Shown: positions 587 to 9,893, counted from the stretch's first letter. The stretch: DNA of 64,000 bases from Perna viridis (GCA_037379345.1 CM074515.1:5270001-5334000), one strand, 5' to 3'. Translations and numbers: made by a program. The notes: generated by a model from the letters alone, not told the origin.

Positions 587-3500
587 GTGCTAGCTTGTAT
601 GTTGTATCGTATGTTGAACTTTGCATACACCCTATCACAAGGATTTAAACCGCCAGAAGCCTATGGAGCAGGGCCGCCACTAGGCTTGAACAACTCAACG
701 ACAGGTCTTACACAAGAAAAGGAAAAGACCGTACCACTTGGATTATTTGGACAACCGACAGAGACTGAAGTAAAGCTTAATGGACAACTTGTTAAGACAC
801 TACTAGATACTGGATCTACTGTATCAGCCATCAGTAATAGTTATTACAACACCCATATGAAGGCAACTAAACTTCAGAACATCAGCAGTTTGTTAGATAT
901 AGAATGTGCCGAAGGACAACAGCTACCGTATAGTGGATTTATAGAGGCAGAATTACAGCTTTTGAATCAGAACACCAACTACCCATGTGTACTACTTGTG
1001 GTACCTGACAGCCATTACAATGCACATGTACCTCTTCTACTTGGCACCAACATACTGCAGGTAATCCATGACAACATCAAAGAACATCATGGACAACGAT
1101 TTCTACAGTCCTGCGATATAACAACACCATGGTATCTGATCTTCCGATCAATTACACTTAGAGAAAGAGAATTGACACGCAACAACAACACCTTAGCGGT
1201 AGTGAAGAACGCTTCAATAACTCCTATTACCATCAAACCAAATACCAGTACACAGTTTCCTGCGTTCATTGATAAACAGATACCATATGGTCCAACTCCA
1301 GCCATGCTACATTCATCTGAACGTCAACCTAATTGGAAAGACTTAGAAGTGGAACCAGGTCTTATTGATTATCAATATGGCAGCACAAGAACCATCTTCA
1401 TACAGATTGCCAATGTGACAACTAGAACTATCACGATTCCACCGAAAGCAATTTTATGTGAATTACACCCAGTGTCTATCGAATACCAGAAAGATGTTTC
1501 AGCAGCTTCATCAATACCTGTTCTTGACCAAGTGAAGATAACCGAAAGCGACTTAACAGAAGATCAACTTCATGCAGGAGTTAACCTCATCAAGAAGTAT
1601 GAAGACATATTTGCCAAAGATGATAGAGATATTGGACATACTTCAGTGAAACACCGTATTGATCTTCATGATGACAAACCCTTTAAACAGAGGTATCGAC
1701 GAATACCAGCCACCATGTACGACGAGGTTAAGGAACATCTACGTCAACTTCTGAAAGCGGGAACTATTAGAACATCACACAGCCCGTGGGCATCTAATGT
1801 GGTACTTGTAAGGAAGAAAAGTGGAAAGCTTCGTCTTTGTGTAGACTACCGGCAACTGAACTTGACTACCAGGAAAGACAGCTATAGTTTACCAAGAATT
1901 GAAGAACTACTTGATTGCCTTGCTGGAAGTACTTTCTTCAGTACCATAGATTTGAAAAGTGGATACCACCAGATAGAAATCCTAGAAGAACACAAGGAAC
2001 GTACTGCCTTTACTGTTGGGCCGTTAGGATTCTATGAGTATAATAGAATGCCCTTTGGACTCACCAACTCCCCAGCAACATTCCAGAGAATGATGGAAGA
2101 GTGCTTGTCAGATATGAACCTTCGAATCTGTTGCATCTTTATCGATGATATAATCATCTTTGGACGATCTTACGAAGAGCAACTAGAAAACCTTCAACGT
2201 GTGTTCCAACGTCTCAGAGAAGCCAACCTGAAGCTTGCTCCTGACAAGTGTTCCTTTTTCAAACGCAAGGTCACTTATGTTGGACATGTAGTATCAGCTG
2301 AAGGGATAGAAATAGACCCAGAGAAGACATCCAAGGTTCACGACTGGCCGAAACCAACCAATCCTGAAGACATCAGACGATTTCTTGGCTTTGTTGGATA
2401 TTACCGCCGATTTATCAAAGGATTTTCCAAGATCAGCCAACCTTTGAGTGAGTTGATGCCGACACCAGGAACCAAGAAGTCCAAGGCAAAACAGCAGAAA
2501 CCATGGAATTGGGGTACTGAGCAAGACAAAGCGTTTGAGAAGCTCAAACATCACATGTTGACTGCACCAATACTTGGATATGCCATCAGCGACAGCCCAT
2601 ACGAACTTCATACAGACGCTTCTGGATTTGCTCTAGGGGCTGTTTTATACCAAAAACAGGAAGGTGTGAAGAGAGTGATAAGCTACGCTAGCAGGGGACT
2701 CACCAAAGCAGAGCGACGATACCCGCCACACAAATTAGAGTTCTTAGCGTTAAAGTGGGCAGTCTGCGACAAATTTAAAGAGTACCTTTGGGGCAGCAAG
2801 TTCACCGTCTTGACAGACAATAACCCCATGACGTATGTGCTGACAACAGCAAAGCTCGATGCTACTGGACACAGATGGCTGGCATCATTATCATCTTTTG
2901 ACTTCCAGATTCATTACCGTCCAGGCAGGAATAATGCAGATGCAGATGGACTTAGTAGGATACCACAGCAATTAGAAGGCACAGATTCTGACAAACGAGA
3001 GGTCATCTCTATCGAGTCTGTTCAGACCATTTGCAACTCCAACCTTCCCAGAGCATACATCGAGAGTTTGGCTGTCAACCCAGATGCACTACCTTCGCTG
3101 GAAGAAGAACTAACTGATGATGACATCATAAATTGGGCAGCTGTACAGTCAAAGGATCCAGTCATTCTACCATTTGTGAAGTATGTCACAGAAGGACGCA
3201 AACCTACATCAGATGAAGTTGGACCTACACCACTTTTGCGCCAGTTTGCTCACCTTGCTGTTAAGAACGGCGTGCTTTACAGAGATGTCATGATTGGAGA
3301 CGACAGGAAATCTCAGCTGGTACTACCATCTGCACATGTTAGTGTTATACTTGAATCACTCCACGACGACATGGGCCATCCAGGCAAGGACAGGACGATG
3401 TCGCTGGTCCGTGACAGATTTTACTGGCCTGGTATGGATAAGGATGTGGAGAATTGGATACAACAGTGCGGAAGATGCATAAGACGAAAAACACCTACCA

Positions 3501-4969
3501 ATCAGAGAGCTCCACTCGTCAGCATTACGACACAGTTTCCCCTTCAGCTGGTGTGCATGGATTACTTAAAGCTAGAGCGTTCCAAAGAAGGATTCCAGGA
3601 CGTTTTGGTTATCACGGATCATTTCACCAGATACGCTCAAGCAATCCCAACGAAGAATCAGACTGCTCGAACAACAGCACAAGTTCTTTTTGACAATTTC
3701 ATCCTACATTATGGTATTCCTGAGAAGATCCACTCTGACCAAGGCGGATGCTTCGAAAGTAACATCATCAAAGAACTTAGTCGTCTGATTGGAATGAAGA
3801 AATCCAGAACAACAGCATACCATCCGATGGGGAATGGGATGTGCGAGCGCTTCAATCGTACCCTCATCAACATGCTCGGAACATTGGAACAACATCAGAA
3901 GTCTAATTGGAAGGCGTATATATCACCTTTAGTTCACGCCTACAACTGCACACAACATGAGACCACTGGAGTTTCACCATACTTCTTGATGTTCGGGAGG
4001 AATCCTAGACTTCCAATCGACCTAGCATTTGGCTTGCGGAAGGAAACCAAGTTGCCAACCATGAAGTATGTGAAAGATCTACGTGACAGGTTATCACACG
4101 CTTACCAACTTGCAGCTGAAGCATCCAAGAAAGCTCAAGCCACACAGAAAAGGAACTACGATCAACGTGTCAGAGGTGCAGCCATCCAGAAAGGAGACAG
4201 AGTCCTTGTCAAGATAGTTGTATTTGACGGAAGGCACAAATTAGCAGATAAATGGGAGGATGTGCCATATGTGGTGTTAGACCAGCCAAATCCAGACATT
4301 TCTGTGTTTGAAGTCATCAGAGAGGACAGAGAAGGATGTGTAAAGAGACTCAACAGGAACTTACTGTTGCCTGTTGGATTTATTAGACCATCAGTAGACG
4401 ATTCATCAGTACAGACACAAAAGACTAGACCACAACCGAAACCCAGGACACGTAAACAGACAACAGCTGAGAGACATGACACTGCAGATAAGTCTTCAGA
4501 TGAATCTTCGGACGAGTCTTTTGACAGTTTTGAAGTGTTTCACCATGCACTGGATACAGAAGACGGTGAATCCACACTCACTGAGGAATCTACTGTAGAT
4601 GAGCCAGTCCAAAATGTTTCAATTCAGTCTGGGGACGCCCATGCTGAAACGGAGGTAGTAGTTGATGATGCTGATCCACAGCAGAACACACCTGTTGATG
4701 TCGAGCATACTGAAACACCAGATACACCTCCAGTACCTGCCAGGAGATCTATGAGGGACAGACGACCACCTGCGTGGATATCTTCTGGGCAGTACGATAT
4801 GTCAGCTGTTGGGACTGTTCGTCCTGTACCACCTAGACAAACTCAGTCAACATCAGAGTGGCAGCAGAAGGCTGAATTTCTCACCAACTTAGCATCAACA
4901 CCTTTATTTAAAAGTTTACAGAAAGAGACAGCTTTAGCCATTTTGGATGCAGTTAATAGCCACCACTAG
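587..4969 (+). CDS. pol: Gypsy Pol polyprotein (protease, RT, RNase H, integrase); first in-frame ATG at 599
   Basis: LLDTGS protease; RT motifs LCVDYRQLN, MPFGL, FIDDI; RNase H HTDAS...LEFLA...TDN; integrase H-x4-H...C-x2-C, MDY/HSDQG/ERFN and a GPY/F-like KWEDVPY. 1460 codons with no stop. Confidence 0.97.
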   Translation: MLACMLYRMLNFAYTLSQGFKPPEAYGAGPPLGLNNSTTGLTQEKEKTVPLGLFGQPTETEVKLNGQLVKTLLDTGSTVSAISNSYYNTHMKATKLQNISSLLDIECAEGQQLPYSGFIEAELQLLNQNTNYPCVLLVVPDSHYNAHVPLLLGTNILQVIHDNIKEHHGQRFLQSCDITTPWYLIFRSITLRERELTRNNNTLAVVKNASITPITIKPNTSTQFPAFIDKQIPYGPTPAMLHSSERQPNWKDLEVEPGLIDYQYGSTRTIFIQIANVTTRTITIPPKAILCELHPVSIEYQKDVSAASSIPVLDQVKITESDLTEDQLHAGVNLIKKYEDIFAKDDRDIGHTSVKHRIDLHDDKPFKQRYRRIPATMYDEVKEHLRQLLKAGTIRTSHSPWASNVVLVRKKSGKLRLCVDYRQLNLTTRKDSYSLPRIEELLDCLAGSTFFSTIDLKSGYHQIEILEEHKERTAFTVGPLGFYEYNRMPFGLTNSPATFQRMMEECLSDMNLRICCIFIDDIIIFGRSYEEQLENLQRVFQRLREANLKLAPDKCSFFKRKVTYVGHVVSAEGIEIDPEKTSKVHDWPKPTNPEDIRRFLGFVGYYRRFIKGFSKISQPLSELMPTPGTKKSKAKQQKPWNWGTEQDKAFEKLKHHMLTAPILGYAISDSPYELHTDASGFALGAVLYQKQEGVKRVISYASRGLTKAERRYPPHKLEFLALKWAVCDKFKEYLWGSKFTVLTDNNPMTYVLTTAKLDATGHRWLASLSSFDFQIHYRPGRNNADADGLSRIPQQLEGTDSDKREVISIESVQTICNSNLPRAYIESLAVNPDALPSLEEELTDDDIINWAAVQSKDPVILPFVKYVTEGRKPTSDEVGPTPLLRQFAHLAVKNGVLYRDVMIGDDRKSQLVLPSAHVSVILESLHDDMGHPGKDRTMSLVRDRFYWPGMDKDVENWIQQCGRCIRRKTPTNQRAPLVSITTQFPLQLVCMDYLKLERSKEGFQDVLVITDHFTRYAQAIPTKNQTARTTAQVLFDNFILHYGIPEKIHSDQGGCFESNIIKELSRLIGMKKSRTTAYHPMGNGMCERFNRTLINMLGTLEQHQKSNWKAYISPLVHAYNCTQHETTGVSPYFLMFGRNPRLPIDLAFGLRKETKLPTMKYVKDLRDRLSHAYQLAAEASKKAQATQKRNYDQRVRGAAIQKGDRVLVKIVVFDGRHKLADKWEDVPYVVLDQPNPDISVFEVIREDREGCVKRLNRNLLLPVGFIRPSVDDSSVQTQKTRPQPKPRTRKQTTAERHDTADKSSDESSDESFDSFEVFHHALDTEDGESTLTEESTVDEPVQNVSIQSGDAHAETEVVVDDADPQQNTPVDVEHTETPDTPPVPARRSMRDRRPPAWISSGQYDMSAVGTVRPVPPRQTQSTSEWQQKAEFLTNLASTPLFKSLQKETALAILDAVNSHH
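644..687 (+). promoter_or_regulatory. -1 programmed ribosomal frameshift signal (gag-pol junction remnant)
   Basis: Slippery heptamer T TTA AAC (644-650), 6-nt spacer, then stem AAGCCTA (657-663) / TAGGCTT (681-687) extended by TGG/CCA. The 0-frame stops at TAG 681-683; the -1 frame is pol. Confidence 0.85.
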
Positions 4970-5002
4970 TGTGAGTGAATGACGGGACGTCATTCTGCGC
5001 CT

Positions 5003-5010
5003 GGGGGGAG
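5003..5010 (+). other. Polypurine tract
   Basis: GGGGGGAG lies immediately before the TG start of the 3' LTR. Confidence 0.85.
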
Positions 5011-6343
5011 TGTGTGGTATAGCTGTATTTTTATCAATTTGTATTTGTGAACAATGTATTATTGTTAGTTGTCATGTATCCCTGTATGTGATTTATTTGT
5101 GTGATTTGTATTCAATTAAAGTTAGTTTTATCAATTTCATTGCTTGAAATTGTAATTTTATATATTACTCCTTTACAGTACATTTGTAGTCTGCTATATC
5201 CTTATTACTCAGATATTCCTACTCCTTCCTTGTTTCTTATTGGTTGGTTTATCTTTTGGCGGGAACTTGTGATTGTGGGTAGTTGACTCTAGGTTTTGAA
5301 GGCGTGAAGAAGCCATTTTTTGTCTAGTGCAAAATCTTATATTTACCTGGATTGTCTATCTGTGATAAAGCCGATCTTAATTTGAGGTTTGTTTCCTATT
5401 AATAATTTAGTACTTATAACATTCAATTCTTTAAATCCGGAGAATAAATGATCTTTATGCAGTAAATTGGTGATTGAGTTTGAATGCTTTGTATGATTGA
5501 TTAGAGTGTTTTGAAAATCTTAAATAAACTTTAGATTTAAACAGTTTCAACTAAATAACTTTATTGTAACAGTAAGATTTGCATAAAACTGATTAAAAAC
5601 ATTTAAATAACTTAAATGCATAATTTCATATGGATTTAGCATAATTCTGATAAAATGTATGAGTGAGTGATAAATCATTTCAATCTGAATAAATTTAATA
5701 CTGCTCAGTTCTGGTAAAAATGTGAATGGAAGGGAGATAACTATTTTTACTATATTGATTCAGTAGTTCATATGACCTGAATATTTATGGGTATAAATAT
5801 TGGTACTTCAGGTGTATATTATAGTGATGTCCTGAAACTGAAGGCCATAGGAAACACAGCCTTTACACAAACATGTGAGGTATGTTATGCTTATGCGTTG
5901 TTTAACATGTTGTCTGCTCTATTTGTTACTGCAGAAAAACGTATGTCTGTCTGTATTTACATATTACTATTTTCAATTATTTGGTCAATTCACAGATTAA
6001 TATCTGTGAGATTGATTTATATGTGTAGTTAACAAATGCATATAATACATGATATTATTTACATGATCTATACATTTTGAATAAGAGTTTAAAATGGGAT
6101 ATTTATGTACGAAAGACATATTCGTAATTAGTTTTAGATTATAAGGAAAATATTGTTATTTTTCCTATTTTTGATCACCTTGAACATTTTATAATTCGCA
6201 TATTGATCATACCATGTATTTACAATGGTTATTTATTATTACAGGGTATTTTTCATTGTTTCCTATATTACGATGATTAATAAACAATACTAGAACTTGC
6301 AACCTGGGATTTGTGTTTTAATGCCAACCAAAACACGATTACA
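5011..6343 (+). repeat. 3' LTR (~1.33 kb, TG...CA; start could be 5013)
   Basis: Starts after the PPT; the last 31 nt are identical to the window start. Confidence 0.9.
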
Positions 6344-6379
6344 AATAAACCAAAAGAACACATTATACATAGTCACATG

Positions 6380-8290
6380 ACTTAGGGTTAGGGTTGATGA
6401 GGTGTAACGGTTTACATACAAAAGACAAGTCTAAAGAAAGTTAGGGTTTGCAATAGAAAAATTGTCAGAGCAAAAGTGAAGATTAGACCTAAAAAACAAA
6501 CTACAAATAGTCACAGTTTAAAGCTAGATAATGTGTTAGGATAGGGTTATGATAAAGTTGGTGTTGAGTAAACATAGAAAAGACCGGGCTAAAGTGAGTT
6601 AGCGTAAAAGTTAGGATAAGTGTTATAGTGAGGGTTATAAGTCACGGGTTAGGGTAAGATTTAGTGTTAGATCTCGGGTAAGTTCTTAGATACGGTTAGA
6701 TCTAGGATTAGGGCTTCAGTTGATTACATTTAAATCTATAGTTCGGTATAGGGTTATGTCTACGCTTACGATTATGTGTAGGGTTGGGACCAGGTCTTAG
6801 TATTTGTCTAGGGATAAGGTTATGTCTAGGATTAGGATTAGGTCTAGAGATAGGTCTAGGTTAGGTTTCGGTTAAAGTTAGATCTAGACTTGGGTCTACG
6901 ACAAGGGTTCAGTTTATGGTAAAGTGTTGGGTTAGGCTTAGGTTTATGTTTAAGGTTGGGGTAATATGCTGATGTTTGTCCTGGATTATTATTAAATTCG
7001 GATTAGGGTTAGGGGTTAGGGTTAATGGTAAGTGGGGTTAGCGTTAGGTTAGTAGTAAGGGTTAGGATTAAGTGTATAGTTAAATGTTTGATAAAGTATA
7101 GGGTTACACATATTGTTATGTATAGTGTTAAGGTCAGGTTAAGGTTAGAGTTTCAGATAAGATCTAGTGTCAAGAAAATTGTAAGAGTCAACCGTTAGTT
7201 ATAGGCTCAGGTCAATGACAAGAGTTTAGTTTATGTTTAAGTGTTGGGTTAGGCTTAGGGTTGTGTTTAAGGTTGGGGTTTGATGCTGATGTTTGTCTAT
7301 GGTTATGGTTAAGTTAGGGTGAGGGTTAGGATTAGATCTAGAGATAGGTCTAGGTTAGGTTTCGGTTAAAGTTAGATCTAGGGTTAGTGTTTGGAATAGA
7401 CTTAAAGAGTTTGTATTAAGGTGAAAGATACTGTCATGATAAAGTTATAACTAGGGTTAGGGTCTGAATTGCAGATAAGGTCTAGTACCAAGACAGTTGC
7501 TAGAGTCAACCCTTAGATTAAGGATCAGGTCTAAGGTAAGAGTTAAGTTTATGGTCATTTGTACATTTACGCCTAAGGTTATGTTTAAGGTTGAGGTCGG
7601 ATGTTGCCCTTTGTCTAGGGTTATGGTTTAGTCTAGAATTAGGTCTATGTCAGGTCTTAGACTTTATGAAAGTCACACATAGAGTTTGTTATGGGGATTG
7701 GGGTCAGATCTCGATCGTTACTTGTTTGGGTTCGGGGTTATGACTTGGGTCAGTGTTAGATTTAGATAGCTAGCGTGCGGGTCAAAGAACTATGGTTAGA
7801 GTTTCTGATGAGGTCCAGTGTCAAGAAATTTGTTAGAGTTAAACGTTAGATCTAGGTTTGGGTTAGGATTAGCTGTATGATTAAGTAAAGGGTTAGGCTT
7901 AGGTTTATATTTAGGGTTGGGGTCAAGCCATGTTATTTGTCTAGGGTTAGGTTTAGGGCTATGACCAATAAATGTGAGAAATAGTTTATCGATTAAGTCA
8001 CGGTTTGAGAAGGAGATACACTTTGAGGTCGAATAAAGTTAGTTGAAAGAAAATGGTTAAGGATATATTTACAGTTGAGTCTTCAAAACTGCTCAGGATT
8101 ACTTGTGTCTATCGCAGGTTTTGTATTGGTTGAGGCTTAGTGTTAGACCTTTGTGTTATGGATGTTATTGTTAAAGAAATAACCATCTAGTGTTAAACCT
8201 CGTGTCAGGTTAGAAGTTTAGAGTTAAAGATAGAAATAGTTTAGGTTAGGAGGAGTGAAGGGTAAATTGTAGGTGATTAGAATCAGTAGA
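6380..8290 (+). repeat. Degenerate (TTAGGG)n-derived array with a ~320-bp higher-order period
   Basis: Dense TTAGGG/TTAGGA/TCTAGG hexamers. Longer blocks recur near 6901/7218/7538/7866 and 7141/7462/7791. Confidence 0.8.
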
Positions 8291-8565
8291 GTAGAGACAA
8301 GAGTCGTTAGAGTCGTTAGTCGTTAGCGTAGGGGTTAAGAATCAAGAATCGTTAGAGTCCGAAGTAAAAGTCAAGAGTCATTAGAGTCGGGGGTACGAGT
8401 CAAAAGCCAAAGTAAAGAGTCGGTAGAGTGAAGAGTCAGAGTGAAGAGTCGTTAGAGTCGGGATAGGAGTCAAGAGCCGGAGTCAAGAGTCGTTAGAGTC
8501 GGAGTCGGAGTCGTTAGAGTTAAAAGTCGGAGTTAGAGTCAAGAGTCGGGTAAGAGTCAACAGTC
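8290..8565 (+). repeat. GAG-centred hexamer/nonamer array (AGAGTC, GGAGTC, TTAGAGTCG)
   Basis: Many AGAGTC/GGAGTC units are directly visible. Confidence 0.85.
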
Positions 8566-8746
8566 AAAATTAAGGGGTCAAAAGAAAGAAAATAAAGAAC
8601 CAAACATAGCCTCAAAAGGTGGGGTTAGAGTATGGAAGGAATATTAACAAGAAGACTTCCAAAAATAGTCTTAAAAGTAAAAGTAAAAACAAAAATGTTT
8701 ATCATTTTGTTCTCAGTTGTCGAAGAAGAAGGTCGTCGTTTACAAG

Positions 8747-9893
8747 ATGTCCACGACTTGTCTATAATGCAAGATGGTCTTTACAAGAAGGTATAATATG
8801 AAACGTCATTTTAGGAAAACTCATGTATACCAAGCTTTAATTGATGTACCCCTTCGGAGAGAAACCAGGTATTCTAATTCTAGACCATCGCAAGGATCAC
8901 TGCGTCCATCACGCTACAAGAATCATGCAGACAGACCAATGCAGTCCACATACGCATCCTGTCCAGCAACAGACAACCTTAGAAAGACAGAATCGATGCA
9001 AACTGGTTTATCGGACTACGGTACTTTAATGACAGAACTACACCAATATGCTTTGAGAAAAGAAAAAAACCAAGATACTTTGATGAATGGACTACGCCAA
9101 GACCCTTATACTTCGATGGAAGGGCTACGCCAATAGATCCAGGATGAAACTCAAGAAAGCTTGCCCAAGGACCAAGCTGACGAAAACTTTTTCATACACC
9201 CGACAGATGATCCCCTTGTTTTCGACGTACCCAAAGGATACTTGGACGACCATTTCATGCCGTGGGCCCATCCCTTTACCAGTGTCATAGCAGGACCCAC
9301 CGGAAGTTGAAAAAACAATGTTTGTACGTCGATTCGTACAAAACTTGAAACACATGATGATGCCTAGACCCGATCGAATGACGTGGTGCTACGACGTGTA
9401 CCAGACCATTTATGGAACCATGGAGAATGTCGACTTTGTACAAGGACTCCCCGACCTTGACACCTTGGATCCCAGAGAGAGACACTTACTTATTCTAGAC
9501 AATATGATGAATTCGGTCACCGAATCTATCTCTCATCTCTTCACGAAATATTCTCACCATAAAAATATAAGTGTCATTTTGCTGGTTCAGAATCTGTTCA
9601 ACAAAAACAAGTATCACAGAACCATCAGTCTGAATGCCCATTACCTGGTTCATATTAAAAATACCAGAGACATATCACAGGCTATGACCATGGCCCAACA
9701 AATGTTCTCAAAAAAGACAAACTACTTCATGAAATCGTACGAGTATGCCACTGCCAAACCCCACGGATATTTATTGATCGACATGGAACAGGGCACTCCC
9801 AACAACTTGAGATTGAGAAGAAACATTTTCCCATGGGATATTCAGGATGTGTTCTTGGAGATGCAAAAGGATGTGTGGTCACTTCGTGAATGA
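8747..9893 (+). pseudogene. Polinton/adintovirus-type A32/FtsK-like DNA-packaging ATPase with an N-terminal C2H2 zinc finger, disrupted
   Basis: HPFTSVIAGPTGS[G]KT Walker A, broken by TGA and a +1 frameshift at 9308-9317; HLLILDNMM Walker B; FTKYSHHKNISVILLVQNLF; RTISLNAHY. The same frame upstream carries C-L-*-C-KMVF-TRRYNMKRH-FRKTH, with stops at 8765 and 9134. Confidence 0.88.

Follow-up and report, generated by a model that had tools for sequence, protein, structure and literature searches.

A broken zinc finger-ATPase gene beside a GAGTC array in Perna viridis: a candidate for self-recognition in a Maverick-related element

Maverick/Polinton elements (polintoviruses, adintoviruses) carry an FtsK/A32-type ATPase as one of their core genes (PMC4028283, PMC8502044). 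A stretch of 64,000 nucleotides from Perna viridis (GCA_037379345.1 CM074515.1:5270001-5334000, hereafter the window) contains a gene that shares this ATPase domain (PF04665) and differs in two features, an N-terminal C2H2 zinc finger and an upstream array matched to it; neither is mentioned in the accessible portions of PMC4028283 and PMC8502044. The main text of PMC11131425 does not contain the words 'zinc' or 'C2H2', nor the available text of PMC4028283 'finger' or 'zinc'. Searches of the open literature, at the level of main texts, turned up neither a description of a Polinton ATPase with a fused finger nor one of a matched array, and no packaging signal of a Maverick or polintovirus; supplementary gene maps, Repbase entries or subscription papers may still mention the finger.

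Judged by analogy, the window system likely works most like adenovirus IVa2 on the packaging repeats. Both combine a putative packaging ATPase with a repeated cis sequence, which IVa2 binds directly, whereas binding is predicted here; IVa2 in addition needs partner proteins and recognises the invariant motif 5'-TTTGN8CG-3' close to the end of the genome (PMC12090768). The window system instead has a single modular C2H2 finger with an exchangeable triplet code, and its predicted site lies beside the ATPase gene. Small terminase/pac systems and PICI (SaPI) also select their own DNA by sequence, from a site located at the recogniser's gene or close to it, but their folds are unrelated, the recogniser is a separate subunit and they belong to tailed phages; a helper redirection as in PICI is hypothesised for the window element by analogy. 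B204 of STIV/STIV2 matches an unbroken relative of the window protein (P0015) in fold, and differs in its length of ~200 aa, its identity of 10-13% and the lack of an N-terminal C2H2 finger in the matched chains. The Ziftr genes of adomaviruses and some adintoviruses are zinc-finger regulators in the same virus consortium; these are stand-alone genes, whereas here the finger is a domain of the packaging ATPase (PMC11071296).

The features of the window and the helices and arrays of related loci are listed in Table 1.

Table 1. Coordinates of features in the window, and finger helices and upstream arrays of related loci
Feature	Location	Strand	Details and basis
Gypsy-type retrotransposon, open pol frame of 1460 aa	pol 587-4969; LTR ends ~31 and ~6343		adjoins left side of element; apparently recent
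G/T-rich strand-biased tract, degenerate GGTTAG/GGGTTA units	6344-8289	+	GC skew 0.46; grades into array
GAGT(C) word array, predicted finger target	8290-8560	+	spacers variable, mostly 6, 7, 9 and 13 bp; shuffle enrichment; covered by other copies in run X1
Finger-linker-ATPase gene, broken	8747-9893	+	frame reading; unbroken relatives 292-385 aa
One C2H2 finger with R(-1), Y(+2), N(+3) and R(+6) in its helix; predicted GAG reader	8759-8824	+	17/26 residues as in P0030 finger; code table in PMC3607563 (Table 2)
Linker, non-conserved, predicted disordered	8825-9172	+	length and sequence variable in relatives; pLDDT <50 in P0015 model
Conserved pre-ATPase segment and A32/FtsK-type packaging ATPase domain	9173-9893	+	60% identity over 45 aa to P0030
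Decayed coding-like region, same high-copy family	9893-10615	+	depth like ATPase in run X1
Second array, CACTTCCGGT units, then TGACGTCA	11983-12420	+	TRF
L054/L102, (GAG)n	-265 to -89		helix RKDNLQR
L132, (CTC)n	-349 to -145		helix RADNRVR
L067, (GGT)n	-158 to -115		helix RWDAMLR
L085, (GGT)n, inverted			helix RWDAMLR, as L067
L153, (GCT)n	-280 to -131		helix WRHDLTR; array internal to element
L134, 20-bp array			helix RAGSKRH; code gives no triplet
L018, 20-bp array			other finger spacing; code gives no triplet
L050, no array			helix RKDAMLR; GTG still top GNN triplet, O/E 1.7
L039, no array			helix RKDVMLR; error-prone contig

The window copy of the finger-ATPase gene is a pseudogene, with two stops and one frame break. 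An earlier note on this DNA had placed the start codon, the finger and the N-terminus of the ATPase in one frame, and re-reading confirmed this for ATG 8747, Cys 8759, Cys 8768, His 8807, His 8822-8824 and Met 9257, with the two point stops (8765-8767 and 9134-9136) in the frame of the ATG. The break in Walker A was found as described: the frame closes at 9308-9310 (break at ~9308-9315) and the ATPase resumes in another frame, which ends with the stop at 9891-9893. The span of 1147 nt agrees with the ~381-codon ORF that had been proposed after repair. The finger follows the classical pattern C-x2-C-x12-H-x3-5-H with a hydrophobic core, one stop lying inside the knuckle, and the helix residues were those given before, R(-1) at 8786, N(+3) at 8795 and R(+6) at 8804. 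Against Pfam, the N-terminal piece (X at the stops) matched zf-C2H2 weakly (E 0.005) and the C-terminal piece Pox_A32 (E 0.003), both below the cut-off; a PDB sequence search gave no match. Both pieces, finger and ATPase, could be aligned to unbroken relatives, and the ATPase domain is up to 65% identical to relatives annotated PF04665. None of the data sets listed as containing the stretch is recorded as RNA; an RNA run contained 140 reads from both strands, none 99% alike, and is silent on expression of the window copy.

A dense array had been reported ~180 bp upstream of the gene, and its last GAGTC ends 188 bp before the ATG. GAGTC occurs 19 times in the array (3.9 expected from 300 dinucleotide shuffles, maximum 9), and at most 3 times in every other 270-bp segment of the 64 kb. 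GAG alone is in mild excess (25 versus 19.9 shuffled), and the next base is T in 23 of these 25; as the triplet exceeds the shuffles only mildly, the enriched unit is the word GAGT(C). Spacings of 7, 13 and 20 bp rule out that the array is coding sequence. Copies in the same genome are known through read data alone. Four runs contained other copies of positions 8000-10700, and in run X1, which covers the array, the family reaches a high copy number (2912 contigs). One X1 contig bridges 8474-8823, thus array and finger are joined in another copy as well, which bears out their linkage. The Walker A break differs in other copies (8 contigs of X1, 2 of X11, 1 of X15 and 5/5 reads of X21).

The array is the end of the G/T-rich tract, which the earlier note had missed; this ~2 kb telomere-like tract contains GTTAG 37 times (10.5 shuffled) and internal duplications spaced ~320 and ~490 bp, and its left end abuts the Gypsy LTR. 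The array shares GTTAG with it. Arrays of this kind could be promoter microsatellites or host-factor sites, or in the window just a variant form of the GGTTAG repeats; the finger would then match them by coincidence and serve protein contacts or non-specific DNA binding. A random unit of 6-13 bp holds GAG or CTC 10-34% of the time, so that the window by itself says little on this point and the series across families carries the claim.

Unbroken relatives share the layout finger-linker-ATPase, and the proposed fusion in a single ORF therefore stands. Of 123 homologues examined, 100 bear Walker A, and in 14 of these the motif is preceded by a full finger; for 150 cluster representatives examined the count is 19/106. 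Both counts are lower bounds, since many further entries start within the finger. Among the 25 closest ATPases the fusion is found in 14. Two other arrangements were rejected: separate genes for finger and ATPase, and a host finger gene inserted by chance, as the relatives start at the same N-terminal point. Walker A and B motifs are present in the relatives. The architecture is already in databases, as judged from an automatically named ESM Atlas cluster of 66 members (Pox_A32 41%, zf-C2H2 39%); in the nearest Atlas cluster eukaryotes predominate, and Mollusca are the most frequent group among its few recorded members. The model of P0015 shows a confident finger helix and a confident ATPase on either side of the linker, and its best Foldseek match was the STIV B204 packaging NTPase (PDB 4KFS, 4R2H; E 6e-6). 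ATPases of the FtsK/A32 type form an oligomeric ring with DNA-packaging activity; the complex predicted for four copies of the P0015 ATPase scored 0.02, which carries no weight for or against a ring. In P0358 and P0368 the ATPase is fused in frame to a downstream conserved ORF, like the 430-520 aa forms of other clades. The polymerase ORFs of the Maverick-like loci L008 (3-4229), L072 and L036 also start with C2H2 fingers; the finger that begins pPolB in L008 and L072 is of the RxDNLxxH type.

In 39 fingers, R(+6) was invariant, R(-1) was present in 33 and D(+2) in 28 (Tyr in the window finger), and position +3 took six states (N 12, V 9, S 6, D 6, A 5, E 1). Engineered helices for GAG, GTG and GCG are RSDNLAR, RSDALTR and RSDDLQR, respectively (PMC3607563, Table 2). 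All four helix positions were shared in only 22 of the 69 ATPase pairs that are at least 90% identical. The ATPase domains of P0359 and P0365 are identical and their fingers 32% alike, and P0016, P0017, P0021 and P0030 carry four helices on ATPase domains that are 96-100% identical. Such different fingers on near-identical ATPases point to exchange of an N-terminal cassette. Judged from this sequence variation, the helix behaves as a specificity determinant.

The DNA upstream of the relatives was taken from eukaryotic contigs within prokaryotic assemblies, the closest loci being host contigs inside mussel-symbiont assemblies. Contamination of prokaryotic assemblies by animal contigs with Maverick genes was seen repeatedly (ATPase matches: G008 56, G007 11, G315 6). 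A pattern with R(-1), D(+2) and R(+6) fixed and +3 free gave 50 loci, of which five were finger-ATPases (L039, L050, L054, L067 and L085). Profile searches added L102, L132, L128/L133/L134/L145 and L153, and L018 came from a separate search. Before the finger-less families were counted, several rows were dropped: L007, whose contig begins within the gene; L102, which has a frame-shifted finger and counts with L054; L036 (the L039 locus); L011; L198 (other ATPase); and loci with <250 bp upstream. L023 was dropped as mislocated and rechecked as L173, which has no array; L129 and L131 were reassigned to the finger-less loci, the pattern match being the end of pPolB. The closest locus, L011, is chimeric on its upstream side and lacks a finger. 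Scans of viral contigs yielded no finger-ATPase locus and one finger-less Maverick (L024), a metagenome scan at least 4 loci, distant and finger-less among the matches listed, and the further genome samples scored (G936 excluded in one) no new finger family.

On this DNA the helix co-varies with the adjacent repeat across families in a small set; the earlier note had proposed this test. The triplet follows position +3: N goes with GAG (window, L054, L132), A with GTG (L067/L085) and D with GCT (L153). The triplet is followed in most cases by G or T, in line with Asp(+2). Of the 9 finger families, 7 have an array in the 500-600 bp upstream of the gene; of the 27 finger-less families (53 loci) none has one (Fisher p 4e-6). 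Its absence at the finger-less ATPases, which mostly lie directly behind another gene, may however reflect no more than a missing promoter region. L050 and L039 are array-less despite their finger, thus the array is not obligatory. The true pairing of helix and array was the best of 60 permutations, and the best of 30 without the window. This set comprised the six families with a code prediction, L050 included; it leaves out L039 (V+3), L134 (H+6) and L018 (other spacing), and L085 and L102 are family duplicates. Three of the five relatives in it (L054, L067 and L050) had been found by the pattern that fixes R(-1), D(+2) and R(+6). An O/E of at least 2.3 for GAG or GTG was reached in 0/53 finger-less upstream regions and 0/101 host tiles. 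The GCN match is the weakest, as 13/53 finger-less regions reach O/E 2.3 (maximum 2.75 versus 3.55), and the cited code has no entry for W(-1), the residue of the L153 helix. A tree made by a quick method, with three rows short, places each of the three GAG loci in a separately supported clade of its own and L132 as the sister of L134, whose helix and array are both different.

These data bear on the coincidental reading of the arrays. The two finger families without an array, the small sample and the presence of the RxDNLxxH type on pPolB fit a chance match; a middle base that tracks +3 in three states, the rank of the true pairing among the permutations, the empty GAG/GTG controls and sister families that change helix and array together do not, and we consider coincidence quite unlikely. 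Binding of the array by the finger of the same gene is predicted, and we regard it as probable. As a single finger reads only 3-4 bp, specificity would need several fingers of an oligomer. The ATPase would dock via its finger on the array before its own gene; several fingers on the predicted oligomer could then bind the dense array together and gain avidity, the flexible linker absorbing the uneven spacing. The docked oligomer would likely mark the DNA of the element for packaging. Finger and array together would make up a single cassette of specificity, exchangeable as a unit, at the gene's 5' end.

The finger might bind the array for a purely transcriptional purpose, the ATPase repressing or activating the promoter of its own gene, and that of a divergent neighbour, and the array taking no part in the choice of DNA for packaging. 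The arrays end ~50-190 bp before the ATG, directly ahead of TATA-like boxes in L054, L067, L153 and L018, which fits control of transcription at least as well as packaging, and they occur in either orientation (L067 versus L085; L132). The co-variation fits autoregulation equally well, and IVa2 also activates the major late promoter (PMC12090768). Autoregulation, however, leaves the lasting fusion of the finger to a motor domain unexplained, and array-bearing elements without capsid genes keep the ATPase; a need to inherit finger and site jointly would also place array and gene side by side. We take pure autoregulation to be a possible explanation, if on balance an unlikely one. We favour packaging over it because the finger remains attached to the motor; adenovirus IVa2 for its part combines the two functions (PMC12090768). 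Provided that the finger binds the array, packaging is somewhat more probable than not as its main purpose. For the whole reading, a decayed Maverick-related element whose finger binds the array upstream of its own gene and likely marks its own DNA for packaging, the chances appear nearly even, and we put it forward tentatively.

Alternatively, the finger-bound array could act in the manner of iterons, in the replication, excision or nuclear tethering of the element and not in packaging. The layout, repeats ahead of the gene of their predicted binder, resembles iterons, the reduced elements have no polymerase of their own and the window family is high-copy. Nevertheless, the closest solved fold of the motor is a genome-packaging NTPase, no helicase or nuclease domain was seen, and L153 and L018 carry capsid genes; we find this use of the array very unlikely.

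A finger with a sequence-readable target and a repeat that changes with it would offer a testable candidate for how Mavericks choose their own DNA, or for self-regulation of the motor gene. The co-variation in six families, with binding predicted, makes the system a candidate for the self-recognition of Maverick-type elements. It also provides a natural series of co-evolution between one finger and one triplet, with apparent cassette swaps on otherwise identical motors.

As to the relation to Mavericks, the packaging ATPase is present in the window, in a broken copy, and the nearest ATPase clade occurs in canonical Mavericks (L011). In L011, the closest canonical relative, integrase and capsid genes lie downstream of the ATPase. 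With ORFs of ten related loci, tblastn at E 1e-3 gave no match to pPolB in the window, in which the left arm is cut by the Gypsy element and the window start. Matches to the RVE integrase were confined to the Gypsy pol (3416-3979), the left arm lying outside view. The 54 kb downstream showed no major or minor capsid gene and no protease gene. Positions 5000-16000 contained no long inverted repeat; of the termini, a candidate subterminal array on the right was the one trace seen, the left end being outside view. As the ATPase is present and other core genes were not seen, we describe the element as Maverick-related and reduced, and do not claim membership.

In G008, the array-bearing elements of three families are likewise devoid of core genes in their surroundings; both flanks are free of them in L204, as they are in L150 combined with L206. 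Of the two array-less finger loci, L050 follows capsid and protease genes and L039 adjoins a polymerase-like ORF, while L153 and L018 have both an array and capsid genes. The finger-array cassette might be a swappable packaging address, and the reduced elements satellites that divert the capsids of helper Mavericks, an animal counterpart of PICI; we regard this as unlikely on present evidence. Such a satellite would consist of the array, the finger-ATPase and one or two other genes, would lack polymerase and capsid genes, and would bring its own address-reading motor. The system thus described hints at Maverick-dependent satellite elements in animals. In the Maverick-like L018 (247-4257), an IAP/BIR-like ORF, the finger-ATPase with its 20-bp array and a capsid gene were seen, as well as a TBP-like ORF on the opposite strand (IAP and TBP labels from reading of the translations).

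The window DNA is AT-rich. The element measures ~6 kb and comprises the tract, the GAGTC array, the finger-ATPase gene, the decayed region and the second array. The decayed region gave no Pfam match under E 0.1 in three frames and no match to Maverick core genes, and was rejected as a canonical Maverick ORF; it contains an RPRGRP stretch, which we take to be AT-hook-like. A direct duplication of ~160 bp (80% identity) lies inside the element at 10832-11255. The second array, which itself spans 11983-12390, is likely the right subterminal region of the element. Its CACTTCCGGT/TGACGTCA region is presumably similar to ETS and CRE sites of the host and to the enhancer at the left end of adenovirus, and the out-of-frame N-termini of P0005, P0312, P0320 and P0338 resemble the CACTTCCGGT unit on reading of the translations. 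Another repeat family begins at 12446; this dispersed repeat has six copies that are 88-94% alike (12446-12600, 18720, 39890, 46859, 49105 and 61709). A 168-bp satellite dimer is present at two places, 18192 and 58849.
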